Origin: Pseudomonadota bacterium | GTDB taxonomy: Bacteria; Myxococcota; JACRCW01; JAFGSX01 | DNA length: 64,000 nucleotides | Assembly (NCBI GenBank): GCA_043821645.1 | Contig: JBDRCO010000052.1 | Coordinates: 97,442 to 161,441, forward strand | Direction of reading: 5' to 3' | In this document: positions 4,016 through 35,429 of the stretch, in pieces | How positions within the stretch are numbered: position 1 is the first letter of the stretch | How the letters are laid out: every line of letters begins with the position of its first letter | Made by a program: the position numbers and the translations under genes | Notes under the pieces: model-generated | What the model was told of the DNA's origin: nothing | Databases searched by the model: none | Seen by the model: the letters and a program-made list of their open reading frames with translations, nothing else

Positions 4016-4858
4016 ATGAACAGCAAGGTGGCCATCTTTGTCGACGGCAAGAATTTTTATGAGGGATTGCGGGCCTCGGGAGTCCCGCGCAGCGTGGACT
4101 TCGCAGCGCTGGCTCGTTACGTCGTGAGTGCGGTCGGTGGCGGCGTTCTCACCGGCCTCCACTACTACACCGGACTCGAACCGCGAGCCGCGGAGCCTGT
4201 GACGGATGACGAGAAGCAGGGGGGCAGTCTCGAGGGATTTTTAGCCTACCTCGAGACCCAGCCTGGCTGCTTCGTGTACCGCTTTTCGCGCCGTCCACGC
4301 AGCGTGGTGTGCAGCGAGTGTGGTCACGTGCACAGCTACACCGAGGAGAAGGAGGTCGACACCTCGCTGGTGGCGACCATGATACGGCAGGCCGCGGTGC
4401 AGGCCTTCGATGCCGCGGTTCTGTGCTCCGGCGATGCCGACCACACGCCAGCCCTCGAGGCCTTGCGCGACCTGGGCAAGCCAGCCTGGGTGGCCACCTT
4501 CTCCGGGCATGGCCTGGCTCGACGGTTGCGCCAGGCCGCCTACGGTCACATCGATTTGACCCGCGCCCTGGGTGAGCGGGCGATCCCTGCCGCGGTTGAC
4601 GACGATGACAACCTGGGCAACCGCATCGAGGACGAGACGCGCATCGACGTGGTGGGCGCGGTGAGAGAGGCCGAGGACTACTTCGGCGAGACGCGCTATG
4701 TCGGGTTCAGCATGTTCGTCAATGGTTGGCGGTCGGACAAGCTGCCGCGAGACCCCACCGAGCGACAGCGGCGTGTGCAGCTGGCCATCGACGAGGGCCT
4801 GCTCGAGGTCTACGACGCGGCCGACGGCCACAAGGCCCTGCGCGCGGCGCGGGAGTGA
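4016..4858 (+). CDS. NYN-domain (LabA/DUF88, PIN-like) putative ribonuclease with CxxC insert and C-terminal helical domain
   Basis: IFVDGKN, EKEVD and SGDADH acidic active-site motifs; CSECG insert; SD GGGGAG before ATG 4016. Confidence 0.85.
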   Translation: MNSKVAIFVDGKNFYEGLRASGVPRSVDFAALARYVVSAVGGGVLTGLHYYTGLEPRAAEPVTDDEKQGGSLEGFLAYLETQPGCFVYRFSRRPRSVVCSECGHVHSYTEEKEVDTSLVATMIRQAAVQAFDAAVLCSGDADHTPALEALRDLGKPAWVATFSGHGLARRLRQAAYGHIDLTRALGERAIPAAVDDDDNLGNRIEDETRIDVVGAVREAEDYFGETRYVGFSMFVNGWRSDKLPRDPTERQRRVQLAIDEGLLEVYDAADGHKALRAARE

Positions 4859-5784
4859 GCGGGAGGAGACCAGCTCGAGCCTGGGTGCTGGTGGCGCTGG
4901 TCGGAGCCGCGGCGAGCTGTGGTGAATGCGCGCCGGTGGTCTTTTCCGGTGACGGGTCTGTGTTCGCGGATGCGCTGCACAGCGACGGGCGCGTGGTGGA
5001 TGCACCGGGTCTGGAAGCTGCTGGGCGGGATCACGTCGCTGTCGATGTTGAAGCCCTGGACAGGATGTCTGTCTCCGATGCCCTCGTGGCCGACCGCATC
5101 GACCGCGATCGTGAATCCGGAGAGCTGCCGGCGCAGGATGCTGTGGCCTCCCGTGATCTCGGGTCTGGCCCGGTCGACGGCGCCACCATGGATGGGCGCG
5201 CCGTTGATGCGAGCTTCTCCGACCGCACCCTCATCGACGGGAGCCTGGGCGAGGGCGGGCTCTCCGACGGGGCCAGGAGGGAGGGAGGCGGGGTTCCTGA
5301 CACTGGACTGGCCACCGACGCGCTGGCGGGCCGCGACCTTGCACCGGGCAGCGACAGCGCAGCGACGACGGACAGCGCAGCGGCCATGGACAGCTCCGTG
5401 GCGGTGGACGGTGCCGTAGCGGTGGACAGTGGCACCGCGGTGGACAGCGGGAGCAACTGCCTGAGCTCATGCCAGAACTGGACCGAGTGCCCGGATCCCA
5501 CCACCGGCTGTGACGAGGGCCCGGGGTGCTGCGTGCCGTGCGGGGGTCGGGGCCAACCCTGTTGCGTGGACTGGAACCAGGGTCTGTTCTACTGCGCCGA
5601 TCCCGGCGACGTGTGTGGTGTCTCCATCGGTGTCAACGACAGGGTCACCTACTACTGCTGCGCCAACGCCGGCGATGGCTGCTGCCAGCAGGGGGGATGC
5701 TCGGGCAGCACCTGCTGCAAGTGCCCGCGCAACGGGCTCAATTTCTGTGTGCAACCGTCCTTTGGATGCGGCGGCTGCAACTAG
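4855..5784 (+). CDS. Cys-rich lipoprotein with Asp/Ala/Gly low-complexity linker
   Basis: GTG overlaps the NYN stop (GTGA); hydrophobic stretch and lipobox-like GAAASC; C-terminal ~110 aa dense in Cys (CC pairs). Confidence 0.65.
   Translation: MSGRRPARAWVLVALVGAAASCGECAPVVFSGDGSVFADALHSDGRVVDAPGLEAAGRDHVAVDVEALDRMSVSDALVADRIDRDRESGELPAQDAVASRDLGSGPVDGATMDGRAVDASFSDRTLIDGSLGEGGLSDGARREGGGVPDTGLATDALAGRDLAPGSDSAATTDSAAAMDSSVAVDGAVAVDSGTAVDSGSNCLSSCQNWTECPDPTTGCDEGPGCCVPCGGRGQPCCVDWNQGLFYCADPGDVCGVSIGVNDRVTYYCCANAGDGCCQQGGCSGSTCCKCPRNGLNFCVQPSFGCGGCN
5353..5451 (+). repeat. Degenerate 18-nt tandem repeat encoding D(S/G)xxxx hexapeptides
   Basis: DSAATT-DSAAAM-DSSVAV-DGAVAV-DSGTAV-DSG; each unit begins GAC. 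Confidence 0.7.
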
Positions 5785-22215: not shown

Positions 22216-24954
22216 ATGGAGAGAGCGATGAAGAGGCTCATTCACGGAGTGATGGTTCTGGCGCCCCTCGCGATGCTCCTGTGGAGCGCGAACGCCCAAG
22301 CAGTCACCCAGACCGGGCAGGTCACGGGCTATGTCTCCGACCAGTCCGGCATGCCGGTACCCGACGTTCGCATCGAGGTCGCCGGCGAGAACCTCATCGG
22401 TGGCAAGCGCAGCACGACCACCAACGAGGACGGCGAGTTCCGGTTCTTGCAGCTGCCGCCAGGTATGTACAAGGTGGTGGCGACGCACGAGCTATACCGG
22501 CGCGTGACGATGGACAAGGTCGCGGTGCAGATCAACCGCACGGCCAGCGTCGACATCGTGCTCGAGCCGCCGGTGGCCGCCGAGGCCGAGGCTTACGTGG
22601 TCAAGGGCACGGTGCCGGTGGTCGATGTCGAGCGAACCACCCTGGGCAATTCAGTGTCCGCGAGTTTCACCGAGACCATCCCCACCAGCCGCGACTACCA
22701 GGGCATGGCCCAGCTGGTCCCGGGCGTGGTGGGTGGCGCCAACCCGAACGTGCATGGCGCGACCCTGTACGGCAACCAGTACTTCCTTGACGGCATCAAC
22801 ATCACCGACCCGGTGACCAACACCTTCAGCGCCAACTTCAACTTCGATGCCATCCAGGAAGTCGAGGTCCTCACCGGCGTGCTGGACGCCGAATATGGCA
22901 GCGCCCAGGGCGGCATCATCAACATCGTCACCAAGAGCGGCGGAAACGAGTTCACCGCCGACGCCTCGATCTACTACTCTTCCGCCTACCTGCAATGGCG
23001 TGAGAAGGGCGAGGAAGAACTCAACAACCAGATGCTTCAGCTCTCCCTCAACGTGGGCGGGCCCATCATCAAGGACAGGCTGTGGTTCTTTGTCTCCGGT
23101 GAGGTGCCCTGGGCCATCCAGACCCTTCCGCCCACCGCGGCCACCAGCGACATCTTCCCGGATCAGGCAGGCAAGCTGCACCCTTCGCGCGACTTCCGGG
23201 CCTTTTATGGTCTGGCCAAGCTGACCTGGCAGCCCTTCAGCAACCAGACCTTCAAGTTCTTGCTGCAGGGCGACCCCACCACCATCTACAACGAGGGGCA
23301 GAGTCCATCCATCCATCCCGACGCCGAGACCCAGCGCTACCAGGGTGGCGTCATCGCGTCGGTGGCCAGCGAGACCTTCGTGTTGCCCGAGCTGTTCCTG
23401 AACAACCGCCTGGCCTACACCCACGGCCGCTTGTTCATCTATCCGCAGTCCAATGACTTCGATACCCCGGGGCGCGGCAACACGGCCACCGGCACGGCCA
23501 CGGTCAACGATACCACCTGGCTCGACGACAATCGCTACCGCGTGCAATTGCACTCGTCGGCCACCTATACCCTGGACAACCTCATCGGCGAGCACCAGTT
23601 CAAGGCTGGCGTCGACGCGTCCCTGACCATCAACACGGTGTTCGACTCGCTGCCCGGCGGTGGTTCCTACACCGACAATGGCCTGGACCCGACCAACCCG
23701 AACTCTGCGTCGGGCGCCGGTCTGCCGTATCAATACACGCGCCTCATCGAATCCCAGGACACCGTCATCTATGGCGACACCGTCAGCGTGTTCGTCCAGG
23801 ACAAGTGGAAGCCCTTCCCCTCGCTGACCGTGCGTCCAGGCCTGCGCATGGACTCCGCGCGCATGCGCAACTTCGAGGGCGTCGCCCAGGTCCAGATCAA
23901 CACCCTGAGCCCGCGCCTCGCCGTCAGTTGGGATCCCTTCGACGACAACAAGACCGCTCTGCGCGCCGGTTACGGCCAGTACGTGGACACGGGCTACCTG
24001 GCGCTGTCGGATTTTGCCGGCGGCAAGGGCAAGCTCACCCATACCTACGAGTACAACCCCATCACGGAAGAGTACGACATCTACCTGTACGAGGAAGGTG
24101 GAGCCAACGGCGTCGAGGGCAAGGACTACCTCAAGGACATGTTCGACCAGCGCCGTCCCCGCGTGCACGAGCTCAACCTCGGCGTGAGCCGTGAACTCAT
24201 CACCGACCTCGGCTTCAGCGCGGACTTCATCTATCGCTTCTACGGCAACCAGTGGGAGGACGACGAGATCAACGCCCAGTGGAACGAGGATGGCGACGCG
24301 GTCATCGGTTTCAACAACGGCGAGCAGAAGTACATCTACAGCCTGGGTGCCCTCGACGAGGCCTTCATTCGTTACTATGGCTTCGAGTTCGCCCTGAACA
24401 AGCGCTTCAGCTCCAACTGGGAAATGATGGCCTCCTACACTTGGTCGTGGACCGAGGGGACAGAGCCCAGCATCATCAGCGTTGCGTTCGATCGCCCGCG
24501 CCAGCGGGAATATGAGTTCGGCTTCCTGCCCCAGGATGTCCGCCACGTGCTCAAGATCTACGGCAGCTACCGCCTGCCCTACGGCTTCGTGGTCGGCGGA
24601 CGCGTGCGCTACCAGTCCGGCGGTCCGTACAACCGCTATTACTTCAACAGCTTCTACAGCGACTACGAGGACCGACGCGCACCCCGCGGCTTCGATCGCC
24701 AGGACGACGGGACACTGGTCGAGCTGCGCTACCCCGACACCTTCACGGTCAACGCGCGCGTGACGTGGCAGCTACAGGAGCTGACGGGCCAGAAGCTCGA
24801 CCTGATCTGCGAGGTGTTCAACCTGCTCAACGCGCGGACACCAGCGGGCTACGAGACCCGGAACCTGCCGGCTGGCGGCGCCACCCAGTTCGGCGACGTC
24901 ACGGACAAGCTCGATCCACTCAACGTGCAGCTGGGTCTCCGGTACCGTTTCTAG
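22216..24954 (+). CDS. Oar-like TonB-dependent outer membrane receptor with N-terminal carboxypeptidase-regulatory-like domain
   Basis: Signal peptide; TGQVTGYV.D..G.P.P; plug NQYFLDGINITDP, AEYG..QGGIINIVTKSGGNEF; GGPIIKDRLWFF; SPRL..SWDP; C-terminal LGLRYRF. Confidence 0.93.
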   Translation: MERAMKRLIHGVMVLAPLAMLLWSANAQAVTQTGQVTGYVSDQSGMPVPDVRIEVAGENLIGGKRSTTTNEDGEFRFLQLPPGMYKVVATHELYRRVTMDKVAVQINRTASVDIVLEPPVAAEAEAYVVKGTVPVVDVERTTLGNSVSASFTETIPTSRDYQGMAQLVPGVVGGANPNVHGATLYGNQYFLDGINITDPVTNTFSANFNFDAIQEVEVLTGVLDAEYGSAQGGIINIVTKSGGNEFTADASIYYSSAYLQWREKGEEELNNQMLQLSLNVGGPIIKDRLWFFVSGEVPWAIQTLPPTAATSDIFPDQAGKLHPSRDFRAFYGLAKLTWQPFSNQTFKFLLQGDPTTIYNEGQSPSIHPDAETQRYQGGVIASVASETFVLPELFLNNRLAYTHGRLFIYPQSNDFDTPGRGNTATGTATVNDTTWLDDNRYRVQLHSSATYTLDNLIGEHQFKAGVDASLTINTVFDSLPGGGSYTDNGLDPTNPNSASGAGLPYQYTRLIESQDTVIYGDTVSVFVQDKWKPFPSLTVRPGLRMDSARMRNFEGVAQVQINTLSPRLAVSWDPFDDNKTALRAGYGQYVDTGYLALSDFAGGKGKLTHTYEYNPITEEYDIYLYEEGGANGVEGKDYLKDMFDQRRPRVHELNLGVSRELITDLGFSADFIYRFYGNQWEDDEINAQWNEDGDAVIGFNNGEQKYIYSLGALDEAFIRYYGFEFALNKRFSSNWEMMASYTWSWTEGTEPSIISVAFDRPRQREYEFGFLPQDVRHVLKIYGSYRLPYGFVVGGRVRYQSGGPYNRYYFNSFYSDYEDRRAPRGFDRQDDGTLVELRYPDTFTVNARVTWQLQELTGQKLDLICEVFNLLNARTPAGYETRNLPAGGATQFGDVTDKLDPLNVQLGLRYRF

Positions 24955-25085
24955 TTCTCTCCGGGCCTGGCTACGGGTCCTGCCCAGGTGCCCGATAGAG
25001 ACCGGTACGTGCACGACCCTTCGGGCCTGCTAGAATAGAGAAGAGGCCTGTGGCGGATGCTGCGGGGCCGTGCCGTGGGTGCAGG

Positions 25086-25844
25086 ATGTTTGAGGGCTTC
25101 GTCGAGCAGCGACACGAGACCGGCCTGTTGCGGCGGCTGGCAGCGTTCTCGCTATCGACGGGTCTGCACATTGGCCTGGTTGCGCTGATCCTGTTTCTCT
25201 CGGTCAAGGTCGCCGAGAGTGCCGCGGACGAGGAAGTGCCGGTGCTGTTCTATGCACCACCCCCCCCGCCACCGCCTCCTCCACCACCACCCAAGGTCAC
25301 CAAGGTCAAGAAGGTCAAGACCAGGCCCACCGAGATCGTCCAGCCCAAGGTCGAGGAGATCAGACCCGTGGAGCCCGAGCTAGAGCCCGAGCCAGAACCC
25401 GAGCCAGAACCCGAGCCGGTGAATGACGAGGACGGCGAGGAAGGTGGCGTCGAGGGCGGCGTGGTGGGTGGCGTCGTGGGAGGTGTGGTCGGTGGGGTGG
25501 TCGGTGGGGTGCTTGGTGGCCAGCTCGGTGGTCAGCTCCCGCCACCCGACGAGCCGGTGCGTCTGAAGAAGGGCATGACTCCGCCCAAGGTCGTGGCCTC
25601 CACCATGGCAGAGCCCGAGTACCCGCGTATGCTTCGAGAGGCGCGTGTCGAGGGACGCGTCATGCTGCTCATCGCGGTCAAGCGGGATGGCAGCGTCGGT
25701 GAGGTTCAGGTCCGCAGTGGCAACTCTGCCCTGGCCAAGGCTGCGGTCGAAGCGATCAAGAAATGGCGATTCAAACCCGCCATGTACAACGGGCAGCCGA
25801 TTGCCGTATGGCTGCCCTATCCCTTCGTGTTCAAGCTGGAGTAA
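25086..25844 (+). CDS. tonB: Energy transducer TonB
   Basis: TM with S...H motif (STGLHIG), poly-Pro, EP and GGVV repeats, C-terminal PEYP..LR...VEGRV..AIKKWRFKPA. An extended -10 (TGCTAGAAT, 25028-25036) lies upstream. Confidence 0.93.
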   Translation: MFEGFVEQRHETGLLRRLAAFSLSTGLHIGLVALILFLSVKVAESAADEEVPVLFYAPPPPPPPPPPPPKVTKVKKVKTRPTEIVQPKVEEIRPVEPELEPEPEPEPEPEPVNDEDGEEGGVEGGVVGGVVGGVVGGVVGGVLGGQLGGQLPPPDEPVRLKKGMTPPKVVASTMAEPEYPRMLREARVEGRVMLLIAVKRDGSVGEVQVRSGNSALAKAAVEAIKKWRFKPAMYNGQPIAVWLPYPFVFKLE

Positions 25845-25864
25845 TGTGCCGAGCGGAGAGTGAG

Positions 25865-25887
25865 GACGCACGGCTCGCCCGTGCGTC
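25865..25887 (+). other. Perfect 9-bp intergenic hairpin between tonB and exbB
   Basis: GACGCACGG-CTCGC-CCGTGCGTC; there is no U-tract, so a stabiliser or processing element is more likely than an intrinsic terminator. Confidence 0.5.
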
Positions 25888-26010
25888 GACCCGTGAGCCT
25901 TCTGCCCCGCATCCCACCCGCCGAGCTTCCTCGCCGGGCTCCAGGTGTCGCAGGCAGCGCCAGATCCGGGACGTCACACTGGACGTGCCCGATCGCGTCA
26001 GGAGCGTCAG

Positions 26011-26700
26011 ATGGAATTCAGTCTGGTTCACATGTGGGAGACGATGGGCACCATCGCCAAGACGGTGGTGTATGTCCTGCTGTTCATGAGCGTGGGTACC
26101 ATCGGCATCGCCATCGAGCGGCTCATTGCCTTCGTGCGAGCCTCGGGGCAGTCCACCAAGTTCGCCCTCGACATCCGCTCCGCGCTCGACGGGCGCGACT
26201 TCGCGCGGGTGGGTGAGCGCCAGGGGCTGTACAAGCAGTCTCCCCTGGCCCAGGTCGTCGGCAGCGGTGTCTCCGAGTACAACAAGGCGCTGCAGGCGCG
26301 CGGCGCGGGGGCGACTTACGAGGCCGTCGCGGCGGCGCAGAGAGCCAGCGAGCGCAGCATCGACGTCGAGCTGACCAGGCTGCGGCGCGGACTCGGAGTC
26401 CTCGCCACGGTTGGGTCGACCGCGCCCTTCGTCGGTCTGTTTGGCACGGTGTTCGGCATCATCAACGCGTTCCAGGCCATGGGTGAGGGGCAGGGCGATC
26501 TGGCGACCATCGGACCCGGCATCGCCGAGGCTCTGGTGACGACGGCGTTCGGCATCCTGGTGGCCATCATTGGGGTGTGGTTCTACAACGCCTACACCGC
26601 TCGTGTGGATGCCGTGGGTGGGGCTCTGATCACGGCCAAGAACGAGATCGTGGACTACTTCATCAAGGACGAGGGCAGGGCCCAGCATACGGCCGCCTAG
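26011..26700 (+). CDS. exbB: MotA/TolQ/ExbB proton channel protein
   Basis: LATVGSTAPFVGLFGTVFGIINAF, GIAEALVTTAFGILVAI; SD AGGAG before ATG 26011. Confidence 0.93.
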   Translation: MEFSLVHMWETMGTIAKTVVYVLLFMSVGTIGIAIERLIAFVRASGQSTKFALDIRSALDGRDFARVGERQGLYKQSPLAQVVGSGVSEYNKALQARGAGATYEAVAAAQRASERSIDVELTRLRRGLGVLATVGSTAPFVGLFGTVFGIINAFQAMGEGQGDLATIGPGIAEALVTTAFGILVAIIGVWFYNAYTARVDAVGGALITAKNEIVDYFIKDEGRAQHTAA

Positions 26701-26719
26701 GTCCGAGGAGATTGCGCAG

Positions 26720-27136
<417 letters not shown>

Positions 27137-27162
27137 GCCGCCAGGAGAAGGATCCCAGGACT

Positions 27163-27621
27163 ATGGCGATGCAGATCGGCAGCAAGGGCATTCAGTCCGA
27201 GATCAACGTCACGCCGCTCATCGACGTGGTGCTGGTGCTGCTCATCATCTTCATGGTGGTCGTGCCCCTGGTCGAGCGCCGTTTCATCCTCGCCGTTCCC
27301 GAGAAGGACCTTCCTCAGGAGGAGCTTCCCGAAGACAGCCCGAAGCCGCTGCTGGTCATGCTGGAGGCGGACGGCTCGGTCAAGCTGAACGACCAGGTCC
27401 TGCCCATGGAGCAGCTCCTGGACAAGTTGCACACCGTGCTCAGGCGTCGCGACGAGAAGGTGGTGTTCTTCGACGCTGCGAAGAGCGCCAACTACGGACA
27501 GGCCGTGGACGTGATGGACGCCTGTCGTGGCGTCGGAGCCCGGCACATCGGCATCATCGATCCGGCAGCTGTTGCCGGCGAGTTGCCCGAAGCCCCGGTC
27601 GAAGCTCTACCCTCACCCTGA
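27163..27621 (+). CDS. exbD: ExbD/TolR biopolymer transporter (second paralog)
   Basis: EINVTPLIDVVLVLLIIFMV. Confidence 0.92.
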   Translation: MAMQIGSKGIQSEINVTPLIDVVLVLLIIFMVVVPLVERRFILAVPEKDLPQEELPEDSPKPLLVMLEADGSVKLNDQVLPMEQLLDKLHTVLRRRDEKVVFFDAAKSANYGQAVDVMDACRGVGARHIGIIDPAAVAGELPEAPVEALPSP

Positions 27622-28953
27622 CGCGTGCTCGCCTGCACAGCCCATCCAGGGGTCGCGTCCACGGATGCCGCCGGAGGCCATGGCGCGGGCCCGGCACGCT
27701 CCCGCGCAGGTGACAAGATCGTCGCAGGCTGCGCAGGACGCGCCCGGTTCAAGTTGACGCCACATTGTCACCGCCGGCGACTCCGCCCAGCACTCGGTCA
27801 GGGTGTGATGGTGCAGGCTCCAGGCATTGTCCGGGCGCAGGCTTCCGCAGCCGAGCACGCGTCCGTCGTGGGTCACGGTCGCAGTGGTGGTTCCAGCGAT
27901 ACAGCCGAAGCCCGGCGACACCCCGAGCCAGGCCGGGGCGCGTGTCGGAATGCCGTCGGACAGATCCGCAGGACAGCTGGTCTCGGGCCAGGCGTCGCGA
28001 ACCCGTTTTACGACGCGCTGCCAGTGCCGACGCGGCACCACCAGATCGTGCGCCGCGCTCGCCTCGCCGAGCTGCGAGAAGGGCTTGAACACCACGCGGT
28101 GCACCCCCAGGCGGGTGGCCAGGGGTGCGAATTCCAGCAAGCGATTCGCGACGGCAGGTGTCACCGTGACCCGCAGCTTGACGTCGTGCGCGCCCGCCGC
28201 GATCAGGTGCGCGATGCCGCGCATGGCACGATCGAACTGACCCCGGCCGCGCAGGCGGTCATGGCTCTCGGCATCGGGCCCGTCGAGGGAAATGGAGTAG
28301 CCGCGCAGCGGACTTGCCGCGAGCTGGCGCGCCCTGGTCTCGTCGACGAGTGTGGCGTTGGTGCACAGCCAGGCATCCAGCTGGTGCTGGGCCAGGCCAT
28401 CCAGAACACGTTCGAGGTCCGGTCGCAGCAGTGGCTCGCCACCGGCCAGGACCAGCAGCGGGGCGCCGAGTTGCTTCAGCTCTGCAAACAGCTCGGACCA
28501 GCGCGCGGCCGGTAACTCGTCGCGCGCAGGCGAGGCGACCACGTCCATGTAGCAGTGTGCACAGCGCAGATTGCAGGCGCGGGTCAGCTCCACGTGGGTG
28601 ACCAGGGGAGCCGTGAGAGCCGGATGTGTCCGCGGTGTGTCGACGACCTGCGCCGTGCAGCGAAAGCCCGCGTCGAGCATCCCCTCCCGCCGCCAGCTCG
28701 CCACCAGAAGCGAAAAGGCCTGGTCGTCGAGCCCGGGGACGCCTCCCTGGCGCGCGTACTGCGTCAGGATGCTCTCCTGCGTCGAGCTTGCCAGGAGGAT
28801 GGCTGGACCCGGCGGGATCGCCTCGGTGCTGCAGTCGGAACGTCTGTACCACAGGGCGCCAAAACGCTCCTTGCGCAGGACGTCAGGGGCAGTCGATGGC
28901 GAGGGATGACTTGGGGTGGCCAGATCCGAGGCGCAGGTGCGGGCAGAGACCAT
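27613..28953 (-). CDS. Radical SAM protein with SPASM domain and MftB/PqqD(RRE)-like N-terminal region
   Basis: CNLRCAHC (CxxxCxxC), GGEP, SISLDG; SPASM Cx17C...Cx2Cx5Cx3Cx18C; N-terminal LRKERFGALWY. Confidence 0.93.
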   Translation of the reverse strand: MVSARTCASDLATPSHPSPSTAPDVLRKERFGALWYRRSDCSTEAIPPGPAILLASSTQESILTQYARQGGVPGLDDQAFSLLVASWRREGMLDAGFRCTAQVVDTPRTHPALTAPLVTHVELTRACNLRCAHCYMDVVASPARDELPAARWSELFAELKQLGAPLLVLAGGEPLLRPDLERVLDGLAQHQLDAWLCTNATLVDETRARQLAASPLRGYSISLDGPDAESHDRLRGRGQFDRAMRGIAHLIAAGAHDVKLRVTVTPAVANRLLEFAPLATRLGVHRVVFKPFSQLGEASAAHDLVVPRRHWQRVVKRVRDAWPETSCPADLSDGIPTRAPAWLGVSPGFGCIAGTTTATVTHDGRVLGCGSLRPDNAWSLHHHTLTECWAESPAVTMWRQLEPGASCAACDDLVTCAGACRARAMASGGIRGRDPWMGCAGEHASG

Positions 28954-29876
28954 CAGCAGCCGGAGCTCACCTTCTTGAAATCCGGATCGCCGAGCTGCTC
29001 CACACCGGGCAGGTCCTTGCCCGCGAGGTAGTGACCCTGGTACTCGCCACCCAGTCTGGCCTCGATCTCGGCCTTCTTGCGCGCGGCGAAGCCCGCCAGA
29101 TCGTCCGTCCCCAGGAGCTTGCCGACCTCGCGGTCGCTCAGGTGCTGGTCTCCGGTGACCAGGCGCGAGAACAGTGGAATGTGACGCAGGAAGTGGGTCT
29201 CGGCGTTCTTGAGGCGCTCGTCCATGTCCCAGATGTCGACGCCGGCTGGCTGGCTCGCGAGGTCCCGATAGGCCCAGGTGATCGCCTCGGCACCGGTCAT
29301 CGTGGCAGCGTGCTGGCTCGCCTTGCGCGTGATGTTCACGTCCAGGTTCTTGCGCCCATCGATGTCACGGCTCACCTTGCTGAGAGCATCGTTCCAGGCG
29401 CTCATCTCGGTGCGGAAGGACTCCAGGGAGCCATCCACCGCTGCGTCGGCGAGCTTTCCGGACAGCCCCTGCAGGCGATCCGAGGCCTCGGCCTCCTTGC
29501 GATCGAGGCGCCCGTCGCCATTCTTGTCCAGTGCGCGCACCTCCTGCTTGGCCGCAAGCAGAGCACTCATCACGTTCTGGACCTCACCTGAATCCAGCTT
29601 CTTGGGATCGACCTGCACGCTGCGCGTCGACGTTCCACCTGAACAGCCGGCAGGAACGCTTCGCTCCTCGGTGCGTGCAAAGCTGTCCTTGATGGCCTCC
29701 AGGCTCCTGTCCAGGGCCCGGTCGCCCGTCGCCTCGACCGCGTGCTCCAGCTTCTCCACGTCGACAGAACCGTCTGCGGAGCGCGCGGTCTTGATGGCAT
29801 CCCCCAGCCGGTCGAGGGTCTTGTCCAGGTCGCGGGGCACCACCGCGGGCATGTCGGGCTTGCGGATCGAGGTCAT
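28953..29876 (-). CDS. 307-aa hypothetical protein with an EF-hand-like loop, ending in SSGC
   Basis: SD AAGGAG; strong GC3 bias; DKNGDGRLDRKE; TGATG overlap with the radical SAM start; no signal peptide evident. Confidence 0.85.
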   Translation of the reverse strand: MTSIRKPDMPAVVPRDLDKTLDRLGDAIKTARSADGSVDVEKLEHAVEATGDRALDRSLEAIKDSFARTEERSVPAGCSGGTSTRSVQVDPKKLDSGEVQNVMSALLAAKQEVRALDKNGDGRLDRKEAEASDRLQGLSGKLADAAVDGSLESFRTEMSAWNDALSKVSRDIDGRKNLDVNITRKASQHAATMTGAEAITWAYRDLASQPAGVDIWDMDERLKNAETHFLRHIPLFSRLVTGDQHLSDREVGKLLGTDDLAGFAARKKAEIEARLGGEYQGHYLAGKDLPGVEQLGDPDFKKVSSGC

Positions 29877-29987
29877 TTTGGAACTCCTTGGGAAGATGAG
29901 GCGCTGCTCATCCTATCTGGAATCGTCTGAATTTGGGCGAGATCTGGCTCCAAGGTGCTTGCCGTCCTGGAGGTCCTGCCAGGCCGC

Positions 29988-30506
29988 TCACTGCCCGATG
30001 AACTTGCACCAGCCCCGGCAGCGCGCCCGGGACTTGTCGCAGTTATCAAAACAGCCAGCGCAGGTGTGGGAATCCCCGGGCGAGGTGGTGCAGGCGTCGC
30101 CGCAAGCGCTCGCCTGGCGGTCGCAATCGCGGCGGCAGTCGCTCTGGTCGGTGCCGTCGCGCTCCTGGTGCTCCCGGTTGGTGCCGTCGAGGCAGGCGCG
30201 GATGGACGCGCTATCCGAGGCCGCATCGCCCTGGCAGCTCAAGCCCGCCAGGCACTCGGCGCCCTCGGCCTTCCATTCCTGGCACTGCTCCAGGCACACG
30301 GCCAGATCCAGCTCGCGGCCAGACTCGGCGTCGCGGCAACCGCGGGGCGTTCCATCCGGTGCCTGGGCCACGCTGTCCGCGCGGAGTCCGCACGCCTCGA
30401 CCACCACCTCGCAGGCCTTGTCGCAGGGGCCCGTGCAGGCCCATCCCCAGAGGCACAGGAACCCGACGCTCACGGCGACACCAAGGCTGAGCAGGCGTGC
30501 GTGCAT
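29988..30506 (-). CDS. Cys-rich secreted protein or lipoprotein
   Basis: Hydrophobic N-terminus ending WGWAC; many CxxxC spacings. Confidence 0.7.
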   Translation of the reverse strand: MHARLLSLGVAVSVGFLCLWGWACTGPCDKACEVVVEACGLRADSVAQAPDGTPRGCRDAESGRELDLAVCLEQCQEWKAEGAECLAGLSCQGDAASDSASIRACLDGTNREHQERDGTDQSDCRRDCDRQASACGDACTTSPGDSHTCAGCFDNCDKSRARCRGWCKFIGQ

Positions 30507-30512
30507 GTGGGC

Positions 30513-31091
30513 TCAGTCCAACAGGCCAGCGGGGTTGACGTCGACGGTGAAGGTCGTGGCGAAGCGCAGGTCGCAACCCAGGCCAGGCCTGTCGTTGGCC
30601 GTAGCGTCGACGCGAAGGGTCATGCTGGGCGCGGCTAGGAAGTCCTTGAGGTTGTGGTTGCTGTCGACGACGAAGTCGTAGCGGAATACACCGACCCCGA
30701 AGGCGTCGCTTGCGCTCTCGGCGACCACCGCTTCTGCCACGCCCTCGGCCTGCAACACGAAGCGCACCTGGTCCAGAAAGCGTAGGTCCTGCAACAGGTT
30801 GCCGTTGCGGTCGGCAGGGCCGAGCACCTCGAGGGTGACGGACTTGGCCACGAAGCTGTCGACGTCGTTCGTGTCCACACCCTGGTTCTCGAACGACTGG
30901 GACACCGACTGCGACAGGTTGTCCGCGATGCCGTCGACCGGGATCACCGACAGAGGGTCACTGACCAGGTTCTTGCCCGGGATGCTGACCACCTGTTCGC
31001 CGTCGACGTCGAAGCGCTCGAGGTCCTGCACGGGATTGCAGGCCAGCGGCAGCAGGCACAACAGCAACGCGCCAGGGCTCCGCCCGTTCAT
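30513..31091 (-). CDS. Lipoprotein, beta-rich, function unknown
   Basis: Start MNGRSPGALLLCLLPLAC (lipobox PLAC); ATG overlaps the S8 gene stop. Confidence 0.78.
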   Translation of the reverse strand: MNGRSPGALLLCLLPLACNPVQDLERFDVDGEQVVSIPGKNLVSDPLSVIPVDGIADNLSQSVSQSFENQGVDTNDVDSFVAKSVTLEVLGPADRNGNLLQDLRFLDQVRFVLQAEGVAEAVVAESASDAFGVGVFRYDFVVDSNHNLKDFLAAPSMTLRVDATANDRPGLGCDLRFATTFTVDVNPAGLLD

Positions 31092-34000
31092 CGACGGCGC
31101 CTCCACCCGAAGGCCAGGGCGAGGCCCAGCATCGCCAGGGCGGCCGGGCGCATGTTCGTCGACGTCTGGCTGCGGCAGCAGCAGCCCTCCGTGCACTCGT
31201 CCTTGGCTGGCGGGGCAATGGAGAAGGGCAGGGGCGTGCCCCAGTTGCCCGTGTTGCGGTCATCGTGGTGAAAGCTGGCCCATTGCACGCTGGGGTAGCG
31301 CGAGCCGGCCTTGGCCTGGCTGGGACCCCGTGTCCCCCAGACATAGAGCCAGCCCTCGCGGGTTCCGGTGACGACGTCCAGCAACCCGTCGCCGTCGAGA
31401 TCGCCAATTGCTGGCGTGCTCAGCCCCCACTGGCTGTGGAACTTGGGCCATCCCGCCGGAGCCTCGCCCTTGTGGTTGAAGGCGAACACGAAGTAGCCAC
31501 CCTCCGTCGACAGTGTCTCGGGGAGACCGTCGCCGTCGATGTCGGCCACCGCGTAGTTCATGAAGAACTGAAAGTCGTTGACCTTCTGCGGGAAGCCGTC
31601 GAGGAAGTAGCCGCTCTCCAGATCCCAGGCACCGATGGAATGGTCGTAGGACGCGCGCCGGCCACCCTCGCTGGCCACCCGGACCAGACCTGTCCCGGCA
31701 GTGCCGTCGATGACGTCGAGTTTTCCGTCGACGTTGAGGTCCGCGATGGTGGGATCGTTGATCAGGGGCAGGGTGATGATCTCCTTGGTATTGGACTGTC
31801 GGCCATAGGCCTCGGAGCCCGAGAACATGTTGGACTCCTGGCCATCGCGGCCGTCGATGCCGAGCTTGGTGATGTTGCCGCCCATGCCGGCGGCGACGAT
31901 CTCGTCCTTGCCGTCGCCATCGATATCCGCCGCGGCAGGAGAATTGGGCTGACCACGGCCCACGAAGGGCAAGATCTCACCCGGCACGAAGCCGATGAGG
32001 TTGTGCGGCCAGCGCGGCAGAAAAGCGCCACCACTGTGGGCGTTGCCGTCTCCCCAGATCGCGTACACGAAGCTCGCCGTCGAGCCCTCGACCCGCTCGT
32101 TGGTGCCCACCACAACCTCGGGTTTGCCGTCGCCATCGAGGTCCGCCAGGGCCGGGGTGGAGATAATACGCCCGTCGAGCCTCTGCCCGCTGTTGGTTCC
32201 TGGCTGGTAGGTCTCGTTGCGACACAGCACCGGCCAGCCATTCACAGCCGTGCCGTCGTCGTGCCAGGCGTACACCCACTGGTCCATGGCGGCGACGATG
32301 ATCTCCAGGTCGCCGTCGTTATCGAGATCGCCCAGCACCGCGGACGAGAAGATCCCGCTCTCGGCAAAGCGCTGCTCCGTGCCCTGGAACTTGCCCCACA
32401 CGAATTCGGACACGTGGGCGGGATCTAGTCCGACCGGGAAGCCGGCGCGGAGCCTGGCCTGGTCGTCGAAGACATAGACCAGCCCGTCAAAGGTCGGCAC
32501 AACGATGCTCTTGCCCACTCCGCTGCCTTCGAGGTCACCGACGGCCGCAGCCCCGCGCACCGAGCTGAACTTGTCTGCTGTGGTCACCTGCCCCGAGGTG
32601 TAAGCCGCGCTCTGCCGGTGGCATTTGCGAGGCTCGGCTGCGCAGAAAGTCGGGTCGAGGGAGGGGTAGGTGTTGACCACGGTGGGGAAGCCTGGCAGCT
32701 CACTGCCGTCGAGCTTCATCGCGTGGACCTCGCCGTCCTCGGTGACAAAGACCATCTCCTGGGAGCCGTCGCCGTCCAGATCCGTGATCTTCACGGAGCC
32801 CGTTCCGGCGCCGAAGAAACGCGGCCAGCCAGGCTTGAGATCCGGGTCGTGGTGGACCGCGATAGACTTGCGAAACTCACCGCGCACCTCGCCGTTTGGC
32901 CCGCTTGCCGTGCCAACCAGGCGCAGGGTCACCGTGAACTGATCACGCTGGGTCGGCACTGCGGCGGGGTCGGCGAAGATGCCGGCAGTGGGCAGCGTGC
33001 CCAGTTTCTGCTCGACGACAGGAGCGCTGCGTGTGGCCTGACCGCTGGCCAGGTTCACGAAATCGGACTCTGTCGGCACCAGACCGCGTGCCCATTGAAG
33101 CTGCCATTGCACCGTGTCATAGCGCGGGCTCGACACTGAACCGTAGATGTCCAGGTTCGGCGTCTGCACAGGATCCACCACCTCGAACCAGCGCGGTGTG
33201 GTGAGGTCGACCTCGGGCGGGACCTTCTTGTCCCGCAGCAGCTCGAGCGCTCGGCGTGCATTGTTGCGGCCGTAGCCAAAGTGCTCGTCCCAGCCCTTGG
33301 CGGAGGGGTACTTGGTGCTGGAGCACGCGCCGGTGATGGTCTCGTGGGTGGGGTCGCTAAGGTCGAGCCCCGCAAAGCAATGGTACCAGGGCGGCGCGCA
33401 CTCGTCGTTGTCGTGGCAGGCCTGGCCGTCGACGGCCGGCATGTGGTCGTCGGTGGGGACGTCGATGTCGTCGGCACTCATGGTCAGTATCTGGTAGGTC
33501 TCCTCGGTGGTCAGGGCCGTGCTGTAGTAGGGATCGCCGCCGTCCTGAAGCTGCAGGAAGTAGCCGTGCAGCAAGCCCGCCTGGCCCGAGGTCTTGCCGG
33601 TGGCTTCGCTCGAACAGCCACTGCCCGGCGTGGACAGGGCGAGGTGCCCTCCGTAGTTGGTGCAGTTGTTGAAGTTGAGGAAGGTGCTCGAACGCTTCCA
33701 GGGGCTTCTTCCCTCGCCGTCGTTGTCGTAGACGATGGCGTGAACGTACAGCGTGTGCTCGGCATTGCCGGGGTAGTTGTGATGGTAGCTGGTCTCGTCC
33801 GCCGCGCTGGCCACCACGGTCACTCCGTTGTTGTAGGCGTAGTCGATGGCGTTTTGCATGAGCGTGGTGCTGTTGAGCGAGCCCAGGGCCTCCTGCACCA
33901 CCTTGGCGCCCGAATCCACCGAGAAGATGACGCCCTCGGCAAACTGGTTGACCTCGACCACGAAGCTGTCGCCGACGCGCACCGGCAGAACCCGGCAGCG

Positions 34001-35140
34001 AGGGCACACGCCGATGTCGCCCTCACCGTTGTTCCCTTCGGCCGTGGAGTCCTTCGCCTCGCCGGAGCCGTGGCCGAAGTCCGTGTCGTCGGACGGGTCA
34101 TTGTCGTTCCAGAAGAAGTCCCAGCCGCTGATGTCGTCGACGTAGCCATTGGCGTCGTCATCCACACCATCCGAGCAGGCCTCGCTGCTGGCGGGGTTGG
34201 TGCCACGGATCAGGTCCTGCGGATCCAGGTGACCGTTGCCGTTGACGTCCAGGTAACCGGACCCGTCGTAGTCGCGCATGTTGAACACGCCGTCCTCGTT
34301 GACGTCGTAGGTGGCCGGTGAGCCCGCGGTGGCGCCCGGCGGGGGGCAGGACAGCAACTCGTCGGCGTTGAGATAGAACTTGGTCCACAGGTCGCGCTCG
34401 TGCCAGCGAATGCCGGAGTCGAGCACCGCGACGACCACTCGCGGATCTCCCGTGGACAGCAGCCAGGCAGCGTCGGCGCTCTGACCGCTGGACAGGCCGG
34501 CCTGGCCCGGCCGGGTGCAGGTGGCGTCGTAGGGGCCGCCGACGGGGCAGGGCGTTTTCTCCCAGGTGTCGACGTTGGCTCCCACCTCCGGATCAGCAGC
34601 GTCCTCGGGCTGGTGCGAGATGGGGTTGGGCAAGAAGCCCCACAGCTCCCACATGCCAGGATAGCTGCCATCCGAGGGCCAGTTGGCTCGGTCCGCAAGC
34701 TCGTCCCGGGTGAGCGAGGTGACAGCCCGGGGCCAGATCGCGACGTTGATCGGCACGTCCACCGGGCTCCCCGCACTCGGCGTGAAGGTCACGGTCGCGC
34801 TGTAGGGTCCGTCGGCGGTGAACGCGGCGGTGTCGATGCGCAGGTGCACGATGGCGTCGCTGGCGCCGGAGGCCGGATCGAGGGTGATCCACCCGTCGCC
34901 CAGGGCGTAGCTCACCGAGGACGTCCAGCTCTCTCCGGCGTCCGCAGTGACGGCGAGTCGCTTGACGGGAAGTCGTGCGCCGCGGATGACGCTCACGTCG
35001 GGCAGCCTCTCGAAGGCGCGGTCCTCGGTCTGTGGCTGGGGCGCGACCGAGAAGGCCGCTCGTGTCGATGCAGGCACGAGGGACGCGACGAGGACCAACG
35101 AGGAGGCGCTCAGGATGCAGAGCAGACGGGACAGACGCAT
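31088..35140 (-). CDS. Secreted S8 (subtilisin-like) serine peptidase with FG-GAP/VCBS repeats and MYXO-CTERM-like sorting signal
   Basis: Signal peptide MRLSRLL...; catalytic D (VAVLDSG), H (FGHGS), S (GCSSEAT); repeated DLDGDG..E(I/V)V; C-terminus EGCCCR...LAMLGLALAFGWRRRR. Confidence 0.88.
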   Translation of the reverse strand: MRLSRLLCILSASSLVLVASLVPASTRAAFSVAPQPQTEDRAFERLPDVSVIRGARLPVKRLAVTADAGESWTSSVSYALGDGWITLDPASGASDAIVHLRIDTAAFTADGPYSATVTFTPSAGSPVDVPINVAIWPRAVTSLTRDELADRANWPSDGSYPGMWELWGFLPNPISHQPEDAADPEVGANVDTWEKTPCPVGGPYDATCTRPGQAGLSSGQSADAAWLLSTGDPRVVVAVLDSGIRWHERDLWTKFYLNADELLSCPPPGATAGSPATYDVNEDGVFNMRDYDGSGYLDVNGNGHLDPQDLIRGTNPASSEACSDGVDDDANGYVDDISGWDFFWNDNDPSDDTDFGHGSGEAKDSTAEGNNGEGDIGVCPRCRVLPVRVGDSFVVEVNQFAEGVIFSVDSGAKVVQEALGSLNSTTLMQNAIDYAYNNGVTVVASAADETSYHHNYPGNAEHTLYVHAIVYDNDGEGRSPWKRSSTFLNFNNCTNYGGHLALSTPGSGCSSEATGKTSGQAGLLHGYFLQLQDGGDPYYSTALTTEETYQILTMSADDIDVPTDDHMPAVDGQACHDNDECAPPWYHCFAGLDLSDPTHETITGACSSTKYPSAKGWDEHFGYGRNNARRALELLRDKKVPPEVDLTTPRWFEVVDPVQTPNLDIYGSVSSPRYDTVQWQLQWARGLVPTESDFVNLASGQATRSAPVVEQKLGTLPTAGIFADPAAVPTQRDQFTVTLRLVGTASGPNGEVRGEFRKSIAVHHDPDLKPGWPRFFGAGTGSVKITDLDGDGSQEMVFVTEDGEVHAMKLDGSELPGFPTVVNTYPSLDPTFCAAEPRKCHRQSAAYTSGQVTTADKFSSVRGAAAVGDLEGSGVGKSIVVPTFDGLVYVFDDQARLRAGFPVGLDPAHVSEFVWGKFQGTEQRFAESGIFSSAVLGDLDNDGDLEIIVAAMDQWVYAWHDDGTAVNGWPVLCRNETYQPGTNSGQRLDGRIISTPALADLDGDGKPEVVVGTNERVEGSTASFVYAIWGDGNAHSGGAFLPRWPHNLIGFVPGEILPFVGRGQPNSPAAADIDGDGKDEIVAAGMGGNITKLGIDGRDGQESNMFSGSEAYGRQSNTKEIITLPLINDPTIADLNVDGKLDVIDGTAGTGLVRVASEGGRRASYDHSIGAWDLESGYFLDGFPQKVNDFQFFMNYAVADIDGDGLPETLSTEGGYFVFAFNHKGEAPAGWPKFHSQWGLSTPAIGDLDGDGLLDVVTGTREGWLYVWGTRGPSQAKAGSRYPSVQWASFHHDDRNTGNWGTPLPFSIAPPAKDECTEGCCCRSQTSTNMRPAALAMLGLALAFGWRRRR

Positions 35141-35429
35141 TCGATTCTCCCTATTCTTGCCTGTCGCAAAAAGACGGGGGCTGGGCAGGCTGCAATCCTT
35201 GCACCCCGGGGGCCCCGGGAAGCTGCATCGGTCGCCGGCACACCGCACCCCGGCAGCATCGTAGTGCGAGCCACGGCCCAGCGGCAACTCGCGATGTACC
35301 GAATTCCGAGGTTCAATTGACCGGGCCAGGGGCCTGCATTAAGGTGGTGAACCGGAACGCGCCGCCTCGTCGAGCACCGCGGTGCAGGTTGCCACAGCCC
35401 GCTTGGTCGTCGACGTCAATGGAGGGACA

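Follow-up and report, generated by a model that had tools for sequence, protein, structure and literature searches.

The window analyzed in this report is a stretch of 64,000 nucleotides from a Pseudomonadota bacterium (Myxococcota in the GTDB lineage; assembly GCA_043821645.1, contig JBDRCO010000052.1, positions 97,442 to 161,441 of the forward strand). Two genes on its reverse strand are the subject of this work. The first, at 28953..29876 (-), is an open reading frame (ORF) for a protein of 307 amino acids, called the partner in what follows, whose N-terminus aligns with those of its homologs and which is the putative substrate of the second gene product. The second gene, at 27613..28953 (-), was assigned from the ORF, Pfam, and an AlphaFold2 (AF2) model. 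It encodes a radical S-adenosylmethionine (SAM) enzyme of 446 amino acids with a SPASM domain and an N-terminal domain that resembles the recognition element (RRE) of enzymes for peptides that are made by the ribosome and modified after translation (RiPPs). We find that the two genes are conserved together as a self-contained module. We consider it probable that the enzyme is a maturase of cysteine motifs in the folded, EF-hand-type partner, with thioether crosslinking as the most likely reaction.

Organization of the Gene Pair

The stop codon of the partner gene and the start codon of the enzyme gene are fused in the sequence TGATG at 28951..28955 (-), and base 28953 is common to both genes. 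This overlap had been reported in a preliminary description of the same DNA, as had a Shine-Dalgarno site belonging to the pair. The latter was found as AAGGAG at 29884..29889 (-), 7 nt ahead of the ATG of the partner gene. A 5' hairpin had also been proposed. A hairpin of 8 bp does exist, but the 121-nt leader of the partner gene does not fold better than shuffled sequences (folding z of 0.12; 105 of 200 shuffles fold as well). Neither a sigma-70-like promoter nor an intrinsic terminator was found between 27300 and 30300.

The Partner Protein

The partner contains only two cysteines, C78 and C307, and each of them follows a glycine, exactly as had been claimed. The internal site is V74-P-A-G-C78-S-G-G81 at 29634..29657 (-), with the cysteine codon at 29643-29645. 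The C-terminal site is V303-S-S-G-C307 at 28956..28970 (-), and the stop codon comes directly after it. Both were defined from the sequence and from profiles over 74 internal and 62 C-terminal sites of the family, respectively. The AF2 model of the partner, which was built from a 78-row alignment, has a mean predicted local distance difference test (pLDDT) score of 94.9 and a predicted template modeling (pTM) score of 0.85. It is mostly helical, with a single β-hairpin, a helical C-terminal domain (C-domain), and a tail that ends in the C-terminal cysteine. According to the DSSP assignment of this model, the hairpin covers residues 68-89 (29610..29675 (-)), and C78 is predicted to lie at its tip, in the turn that joins strand 68-76 to strand 81-89. 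An exposed turn between two strand-like segments had been expected at this position.

The EF-hand-like loop that had been noticed in the partner is the 12-residue segment D117-E128 at 29493..29528 (-). Its sequence, D117-x-N-x-D-G-x-L-x-x-x-E128, fits the canonical pattern and is conserved among relatives. Among 15 relatives, conservation is at least 90% at D117 and at D121, and E128 is invariant. There is one such loop and not a pair. The corresponding Pfam scores are below threshold (17.7 bits for EF-hand_7, against a cut-off of 30, and 16.9 bits for EF-hand_6, against 25), and beyond these the partner matches no family of Pfam or NCBIfam. Structural searches with the partner model gave no convincing match, and the solved structures agree with it only in helices of the EF-hand kind. 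The best Foldseek matches in the PDB were EF-hand proteins at an E-value of 0.052, and the best match in a VIA-align wide search was the EF-hand domain of polycystin-2 with a Z-score of 6.1, only 5 chains having a Z-score of at least 5. The ESM Atlas returned EF-hand-type or unnamed clusters only, with scores no higher than 0.86. A reading of the polar N-terminus suggests that the partner has no signal peptide.

Radical SAM Core and SPASM Domain

The Pfam Radical_SAM family matches residues 121-266 of the enzyme with an E-value of 4.3e-21. The CxxxCxxC motif for the radical SAM cluster (C127-x3-C131-x2-C134; 28552..28575 (-)) and the SPASM cysteine array (C351-x17-C369 ... C407-x2-C410-x5-C416-x3-C420-x18-C439; 27637..27903 (-)) are both present as the preliminary description had given them. 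In an alignment of 45 family members, all three cysteines of the former are kept in every member. In the SPASM array C351, C369, C407, C410, C416, and C420 are kept in 45, 45, 43, 43, 44, and 45 of the 45 members, respectively, and 43 have a cysteine within 3 columns of C439. Only one member has any cysteine in the 15 columns ahead of C351. Because of these counts, the SPASM domain is described here as one with seven conserved cysteines. The Pfam SPASM model gives the window enzyme 16.7 bits, which is below the cut-off of 21.5, and it matches 9 of 10 family members.

NCBIfam contains 69 families that match the enzyme at an E-value of 0.01 or better, and the best 25 of these were examined. Among them, the enzyme falls far below every curated cut-off, with 139.3 bits for AhbD (cut-off 500), 131.4 for MftC (cut-off 265), and 95.2 for PqqE (cut-off 381). 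By these curated scores it does not belong to the MftC, PqqE, AhbD, or anSME families. The nearest solved structure by sequence is that of PqqE (E-value of 1.5e-14). The AF2 model of the enzyme, from the 45-row alignment, has a mean pLDDT of 93.4. It superposes on SuiB (5v1t) with a Z-score of 31.2 over 395 aligned residues, spanning 21-439 of the model at 18% sequence identity, and on SkfB (6efn) with a Z-score of 29.6 in an alignment that begins at residue 22. Matches that are restricted to the core, from about residue 110, were obtained with PqqE (Z-score of 25.2), anSME (25.0; residues 115-438 of the model), and CteB (24.1). The 38 closest relatives of the enzyme are publicly named "radical SAM protein" or, in JGI records, "radical SAM protein with 4Fe4S-binding SPASM domain".

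The N-Terminal Domain of the Enzyme

Approximately 110-120 residues precede the radical SAM core, since the Pfam match begins only at residue 121. The extra N-terminal segment of about 110 residues that had been described, including LRKERFGALWY, is therefore present. Residues 24-110, approximately (28624..28884 (-)), form the RRE-like domain, which was delineated from conservation, the AF2 model, and the superposition with SuiB. It includes the conserved sequence L-R-x-E-x-F-G, and each of 10 homologs from genomes has the R27, E29, and G32 of this sequence. The model predicts three strands (25-29, 32-37, and 42-46) followed by three helices (48-56, 62-68, and 77-89), the elements of the winged-helix RRE fold.

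The sequence comparisons are less favorable to an RRE than this three-strand/three-helix prediction and the superposition on SuiB. The domain does not match PqqD (the comparisons are given below), and a six-frame search of the genome with PqqD gave matches at four other places only and not at the enzyme. MftB (TIGR03967) is the only NCBIfam model that touches isolated N-terminal fragments, and it does so in 2 of 4 cases (E-values of 0.061 and 0.016), with scores of 13.6 and 15.5 bits where the cut-off is 33. The RRE that had been proposed from sequence is supported by the predicted fold and not by the family models. We judge an RRE-like fold of the enzyme N-terminus to be likely because of the predicted structure, not because of the sequence.

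Linkage of the Partner and the Enzyme

The association of the two genes was examined in 401 genomes of the phylum, 16 of which contain 19 matches to the partner profile. A radical SAM gene of the enzyme family is adjacent to 12 of the 19, and the cysteine hairpin is found in all 12. The other 7 have neither a cysteine motif nor, in flanks of about 1.5 kb for six of them and several kb for the seventh, an adjacent radical SAM gene of the family. Metagenome contigs add two partner loci, both with the enzyme. When these 2 and 4 loci of a second subtype (see below) are counted with the 12 from the genome search, a family radical SAM gene is adjacent in 18 of 18 cysteine-bearing partner loci examined. 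The preliminary description had asked whether the cysteines of the partner are invariant. They are not, but they track the enzyme, which is adjacent at 18 of 18 cysteine-bearing loci and 0 of 7 cysteine-less ones. One genome (G034) contains both a cysteine-less relative (G034:C24) and a cysteine-bearing pair (G034:C16).

The converse comparison started from the enzyme. A search of 41 genomes at an E-value of 1e-40 or better gave 14 loci with family radical SAM genes, and the partner adjoins 12 of them. This supports the expectation that a homolog of the partner would be found beside homologs of the enzyme. The genome of the window has four family radical SAM genes (contigs C52, C138, C37, and C3), and all four are paired. 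At loci elsewhere with both genes on the same strand, the two are separated by no more than about 30 nt or overlap. When 11 loci were compared all-against-all, only the enzyme and the partner were common to them, and the other shared clusters were antisense shadows of these two. No protease, exporter, or any third gene was conserved with the pair in the 11 loci. These observations establish the pair as a conserved, self-contained two-gene module.

Several loci depart from the common arrangement. At L025 (G000:C37) and L028 (G001:C28), the partner gene is divergent from the radical SAM gene, and its product has an extra N-terminal domain of about 110 residues, lacks the C-domain, and ends in Gly-Thr-Ser-Cys. 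At L032 (G030:C5; 6381-8157), the radical SAM enzyme lacks the Cx2C of the SPASM domain, and the 169-residue partner has the internal cysteine and no terminal one. This pair may be a degenerate or specialized variant. At L031 (G001:C203; 1047-7812), a family radical SAM gene without a recognizable partner lies directly after the gene for a 1776-residue kinase-like protein with WD40-like repeats.

Some of the searches returned other material. The first locus search, made with the partner alone, gave 3 loci, all of which were unrelated EF-hand proteins without a radical SAM match. Locus searches with smaller partner alignments gave the 2 metagenome loci and 1 genome locus that was already known. 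The cysteine-less place at G034:C24 (L027) was read over several kb, and the only radical SAM gene there, at 4154-5191 and two genes away, is of the arsenosugar type (ArsS; 430.9 bits against a cut-off of 300) and unrelated to the enzyme. Another gene lies between, and ArsS was judged to be a coincidental neighbor. A complex prediction for the enzyme and the partner gave a score of 0.01, against a mark of 0.32, and this result counts neither way on binding.

The Partner Family and Its Cysteine Pattern

A word-indexed search with the partner found only 7 proteins. When 1.84 billion representatives were searched with a profile, 201 matched at an E-value of 0.001 or better, 103 at 1e-10, and 63 at 1e-30. 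The weakest of these matches are multi-EF-hand proteins. The named relatives come from metagenome-assembled genomes (MAGs) of Myxococcota or Deltaproteobacteria, and the public name of the partner relatives is "hypothetical protein". For the analysis of the family, the first 110 of the 201 matches were taken and the EF-hand repeat proteins P0106 and P0109 were dropped. The remaining 108 rows consist of 94 proteins with the N-terminal domain (N-domain), 13 with the C-domain only, and 1 fragment.

Both cysteines are present in 61 of the 94 N-domain representatives, the internal one only in 9, the C-terminal one only in 1, and neither in 23. The state of the cysteines was mapped onto an N-domain tree built without the loop columns. 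The best tree has 12 changes of state, while the well-supported branches require no more than 2. By counts, the co-occurrence of the two cysteines is striking; its independence from descent is not proven. One clade without cysteines, of about 250 residues per protein (loci L042-L044, from G361, G348, and G196, together with P0072-P0088), has the conserved end Leu-Ala/Thr-Gly-x-Asp-Leu-Pro, and these proteins have a shortened hairpin region or none. It follows that the C-domain also exists independently of the cysteine hairpin.

The Cysteine Motif and a Second Subtype

The sequence around the cysteine was compared at 74 internal and 62 C-terminal sites. The residue at position -1 is Gly or Ser in 67 of the internal sites (52 Gly, 15 Ser) and in 53 of the C-terminal sites (37 Gly, 16 Ser), and positions -2 and -3 hold small residues. 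At position -4, Val occurs in 37 internal sites and Val or Ile in 22 C-terminal sites. The internal cysteine is followed by Gly (55 sites) or Ser (15 sites). The C-terminal cysteine is the last residue in 53 of the 62 sites, and one or two residues lie beyond it in the other 9. The hairpin and C-terminal sites share one context, which consists of small residues, Gly or Ser, and then Cys. We read the terminal cysteine as a repeat of the recognition unit seen at the hairpin and not as another kind of site.

The motif is also found in multiple copies. In several proteins of the first subtype, it is duplicated within the hairpin loop. In the second subtype the gene order is enzyme and then partner, and four paired loci are known (G000:C3, G001:C522, G003:C51, and G002:C117). 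The partners of this subtype have 135-230 residues with a Val-Thr-Thr-Gly-Cys-Ser-type site and an EF-hand-type loop. Their Pro-rich tail carries the motif once, twice, or in four to five tandem copies and stops right after Gly-Cys or His-Cys. Tandem repeats that end in Gly-Cys occur at G003:C51 and G002:C117. These copies look like the tandem cores of RiPP precursors.

Genes That Surround the Pair

The region upstream of the pair contains three ORFs on the same strand. At 29988-30506 (-) lies a Cys-rich ORF of 172 residues with a lipoprotein-like N-terminus, and at 30513-31196 (-) lies one of 227 residues; neither has a match in Pfam or NCBIfam. The start of the 227-residue ORF is uncertain because it overlaps the end of the next gene. 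That gene, at 31088-35287 (-), encodes a 1399-residue protein with Peptidase_S8 and FG-GAP repeats (Pfam). The preliminary description had stated that no protease was nearby, which is not strictly correct, as this gene lies two genes upstream of the pair. In a comparison with 10 other loci, the 1399-residue protein was not conserved as a neighbor of the pair. Its C-terminal end has a cluster of cysteines, then a hydrophobic stretch, and then a run of arginines, an arrangement that resembles the MYXO-CTERM sorting signal. Downstream of the pair and convergent with it, at 22216-27621 (+), are genes for a TonB-dependent receptor-like protein, TonB, ExbB, and two ExbD proteins, and the end of the last ExbD gene reaches 9 bases into the 3' end of the radical SAM gene.

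Proposed Function of the Enzyme

We propose that the partner is very probably the substrate of the enzyme, with the motif cysteines as the targets, because the genes form a two-gene module, the cysteines are found only with the enzyme, the motif is multiplied in some partners, and the enzyme has a peptide-binding-type domain and a SPASM domain with seven cysteines. It had been suggested before that the substrate may be this full-size protein, and the adjacency of the genes and the tracking of the cysteines with the enzyme argue for it on comparative grounds. For the reaction, the preliminary description had named two candidates, a thioether crosslink and C-terminal decarboxylation. Given that the partner is the substrate, a thioether crosslink is suggested by analogy with related enzymes and has, in our estimate, slightly less than an even chance of being correct.

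In the proposed mechanism, the enzyme, in which an RRE-like domain is followed by a radical SAM core and a seven-cysteine SPASM domain, would act on the 307-residue protein that is encoded upstream. The target would be a cysteine within the short motif of small residues and Gly/Ser-Cys. This motif would be presented in three formats: at the tip of the hairpin (C78), at the end of the flexible C-terminal tail (C307), and as tandem copies in the Pro-rich tail of the sister subtype. The thiolate of the motif would bind to the open iron of auxiliary cluster I (Aux I), the 5'-deoxyadenosyl radical would remove a hydrogen from a motif residue close by, and each motif would acquire one sulfur-to-carbon thioether of the sactionine or ranthionine type. 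The Discussion section of a study of the SPASM enzyme CrpC reads a seven-cysteine SPASM domain in this way, as one that leaves an iron of Aux I open for the cysteine of the substrate (PMC13692751). Since neither a leader protease nor an exporter accompanies the pair as a conserved gene, the product would presumably stay inside the cell at its full length.

A number of observations weigh against this proposal. No acceptor residue stands out at the sites, where beyond the cysteine only the Gly or Ser at position -1 and the small neighbors are well conserved, so that a reaction confined to the cysteine fits equally well. Access of an active site to the hairpin is not obvious, because the AF2 model places the hairpin inside a well-packed domain. 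The internal cysteine occurs without the terminal one in 9 of the 70 members that have it, several of these being truncated genes or fragments. The association of the cysteines with the enzyme is partly inherited. A sign test on independent pairs gave a median p of 0.5, and the test for joint loss of the cysteines cannot reach significance because only 2 such pairs exist. The flank examined was about 1.5 kb for six of the seven cysteine-less places. Two of the 14 family radical SAM loci (G001:C203 and G039:C197) have no recognizable partner in the DNA examined. Finally, none of 10 family members matches Pfam PqqD (PF05402) at an E-value of 10 or better, and an hhalign comparison of the enzyme N-terminus with three PqqD domains from the same genome gave a probability of 0.7%.

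Alternative Functions

The missing acceptor makes a reaction on the cysteine itself a serious rival to thioether formation. The substrate and the sites would be the same, and the enzyme would catalyze either the four-electron conversion of Gly-Cys to a 5-thiooxazole, as is reported for SbtM, or the formation of a thioaldehyde or formylglycine, as does anSME. Either product would equip the calcium-binding scaffold with a group that binds metal or is reactive. We consider this possible, though unlikely. The conservation is best, apart from the cysteine, at the preceding Gly/Ser (67 of 74 and 53 of 62 sites), and a terminal cysteine with nothing beyond it suits chemistry that needs only the cysteine and the residue before it. 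Against this stands the fact that a thioether is the commonest outcome of the characterized cysteine-directed enzymes with an RRE and a SPASM domain.

The two precedents can be compared directly with the enzyme. Like the enzyme proposed here, anSME is a SPASM enzyme that acts on a cysteine of a full-size protein, and it is among the structural matches (Z-score of 25.0). However, it has no N-terminal RRE-like domain, and the match begins at residue 115 of the model. Its target motif is C/S-x-P-x-R in a sulfatase, and the partner has neither this motif nor a sulfatase domain. SbtM is likewise a radical SAM/SPASM enzyme, and it modifies the cysteine (or selenocysteine, Sec) itself in a ribosomal product; the conversion to a thio(seleno)oxazole with the loss of four hydrogens is described in a review (PMC11002830). 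The enzyme scores 58.4 bits with the NCBIfam SbtM model, against a cut-off of 350, which is no better than its scores with many SPASM families, and the partner genes showed no codon for Sec.

It is rather improbable that the partner is an accessory subunit that binds a cluster or metal through its cysteines (for example as a calcium-responsive regulator, as a donor of electrons or of Fe-S clusters or metal, or as a chaperone) and that the true substrate of the enzyme is encoded elsewhere or is a small molecule. The partner is predicted to be compact and confidently folded, which is not what a leader-core peptide would look like, and its cysteine-less relatives are presumably functional without modification. 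The two family radical SAM genes without a recognizable partner would also be accommodated. The top NCBIfam score of the enzyme is with an enzyme for a small molecule, heme b synthase AhbD (139.3 bits), but that score is far under the cut-off of 500. The repeated cysteine motifs in the Pro-rich tails, which number up to five or six, resemble modification sites and not a defined set of ligands, the N-terminal domain of the enzyme is predicted to be of the peptide-binding type, and no third gene is conserved with the pair.

Least probable, and in our view very much so, is an oxidative decarboxylation of the terminal cysteine (-46 Da) to an enethiol or related group, as in the reaction of MftC, possibly with subsequent cyclization, with the C-terminal tail as the true substrate and the hairpin cysteine serving for recognition or in a second step: the mycofactocin maturase is the second-best NCBIfam match and extends over the entire core (residues 112-428 to 7-321 of the 339 positions of the model), MftB alone touches the N-terminal fragments (2 of 4), and 53 of the 62 C-terminal sites and every tandem-repeat tail seen end exactly at the cysteine, but both mycofactocin scores are far under their cut-offs (131.4 against 265; 13.6 and 15.5 against 33), 9 of the 62 C-terminal sites have residues after the cysteine, the paired partners at G034:C16 and G030:C5 have an internal cysteine and no terminal one, and decarboxylation as the shared reaction is argued against because the hairpin and the tandem repeats hold the same motif within the chain and so offer no free carboxylate.

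Comparison with Known Systems

The proposed thioether-forming system can be compared with the sactipeptide and ranthipeptide synthases SuiB, SkfB, and CteB, with which the enzyme shares the CxxxCxxC core, the SPASM domain, and an adjacent gene for a Cys-bearing substrate. Its N-terminal domain superposes on those of SuiB and SkfB in the predicted model, and the partner variants with repeated motifs are reminiscent of multi-core RiPP precursors. Unlike the substrates of SuiB, SkfB, and CteB, the putative substrate here is a folded EF-hand-type protein of 150-330 residues and not a leader-core peptide, there are usually only two sites, one of which is on a hairpin tip, and no protease or exporter is conserved. 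From the RRE-dependent RiPP maturases as a whole, the enzyme is distinguished by the lack of PqqD membership by sequence and of a leader-core peptide with processing genes.

The mycofactocin system resembles the pair in providing the second-best model for the enzyme and a weak MftB-like signal at the N-terminus, and action at or near a C-terminus is conceivable for the enzyme. The scores are below the cut-offs, and the RRE-like domain is fused to the enzyme instead of being a separate protein. MftA is a short precursor that ends in Gly-Val-Tyr, while the adjacent product here has 307 residues and ends in Ser-Ser-Gly-Cys, and no other mft genes are found in the conserved neighborhood.

QhpD is a SPASM radical SAM enzyme that puts cysteine thioethers into a protein subunit of a functional protein, quinohemoprotein amine dehydrogenase. 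Its substrate, QhpC, is small and rich in crosslinks, carries a quinone cofactor, and is encoded in a dehydrogenase operon together with a subtilisin-like protease. The features of such a dehydrogenase operon are not conserved at the enzyme-partner loci, and the QhpD model was not among the 25 best of the 69 NCBIfam families for the enzyme.

A precedent for a protein substrate is CrpC-CrpA from Methanococcus voltae, in which a SPASM enzyme with an RRE and seven SPASM cysteines installs thioethers on a full-size protein encoded in the same cluster, and the product remains a protein, as is proposed here (PMC13692751). CrpA is a Cys-rich protein of about 29 kDa with many motifs in which the cysteine precedes the acceptor, whereas the partner has two cysteines, an EF-hand-type loop, and a different predicted fold. 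The pair reported here comes from a bacterial lineage. Two supplementary files of the same paper, searched as text, do not contain the words "Myxococc", "Deltaproteobacteria", or "EF-hand". The SPASM passages of a paper on conflict systems (PMC7159879) concern a different type of peptide and not the enzyme-partner pair.

Novelty and Implications

No curated family of Pfam or NCBIfam covers the enzyme or the partner, and no description of the pair was found in a full-text search of the literature. The module defines an unannotated family of approximately 100 sequence clusters. To our knowledge, nearly all of what is known about radical SAM/SPASM maturases concerns short peptides that are secreted, and we know of only a handful of documented cases in which full-size proteins are modified by RiPP-type enzymes. 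The abstract of the 2026 paper on CrpC refers to the experimental validation as "limited" (PMC13692751). The module would add a bacterial case of full-size protein modification that consists of two genes and can be tested easily. A minimal recognition motif with three kinds of setting (hairpin tip, C-terminal tail, and tandem repeats) would also offer a route to how an RRE enzyme engages a folded substrate, and the pair may be useful as a compact combination of enzyme and tag for site-specific protein modification.

A further reading, bolder and in our judgment unlikely, is that the enzyme furnishes a folded calcium-binding protein with a cysteine-derived group of a kind not seen before, such as a heterocycle like a thiooxazole or an enethiol that arises from the last residue. 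If this were true, the hairpin tip and the C-terminal tail would become a built-in metal-binding or redox-active site, and the short Gly-Cys motif would serve as a tag, portable and genetically encodable, for one enzyme that recognizes it in three structural contexts. The module also raises the question of what a calcium-binding protein would gain from such a modification when its cysteine-less relatives manage without it.

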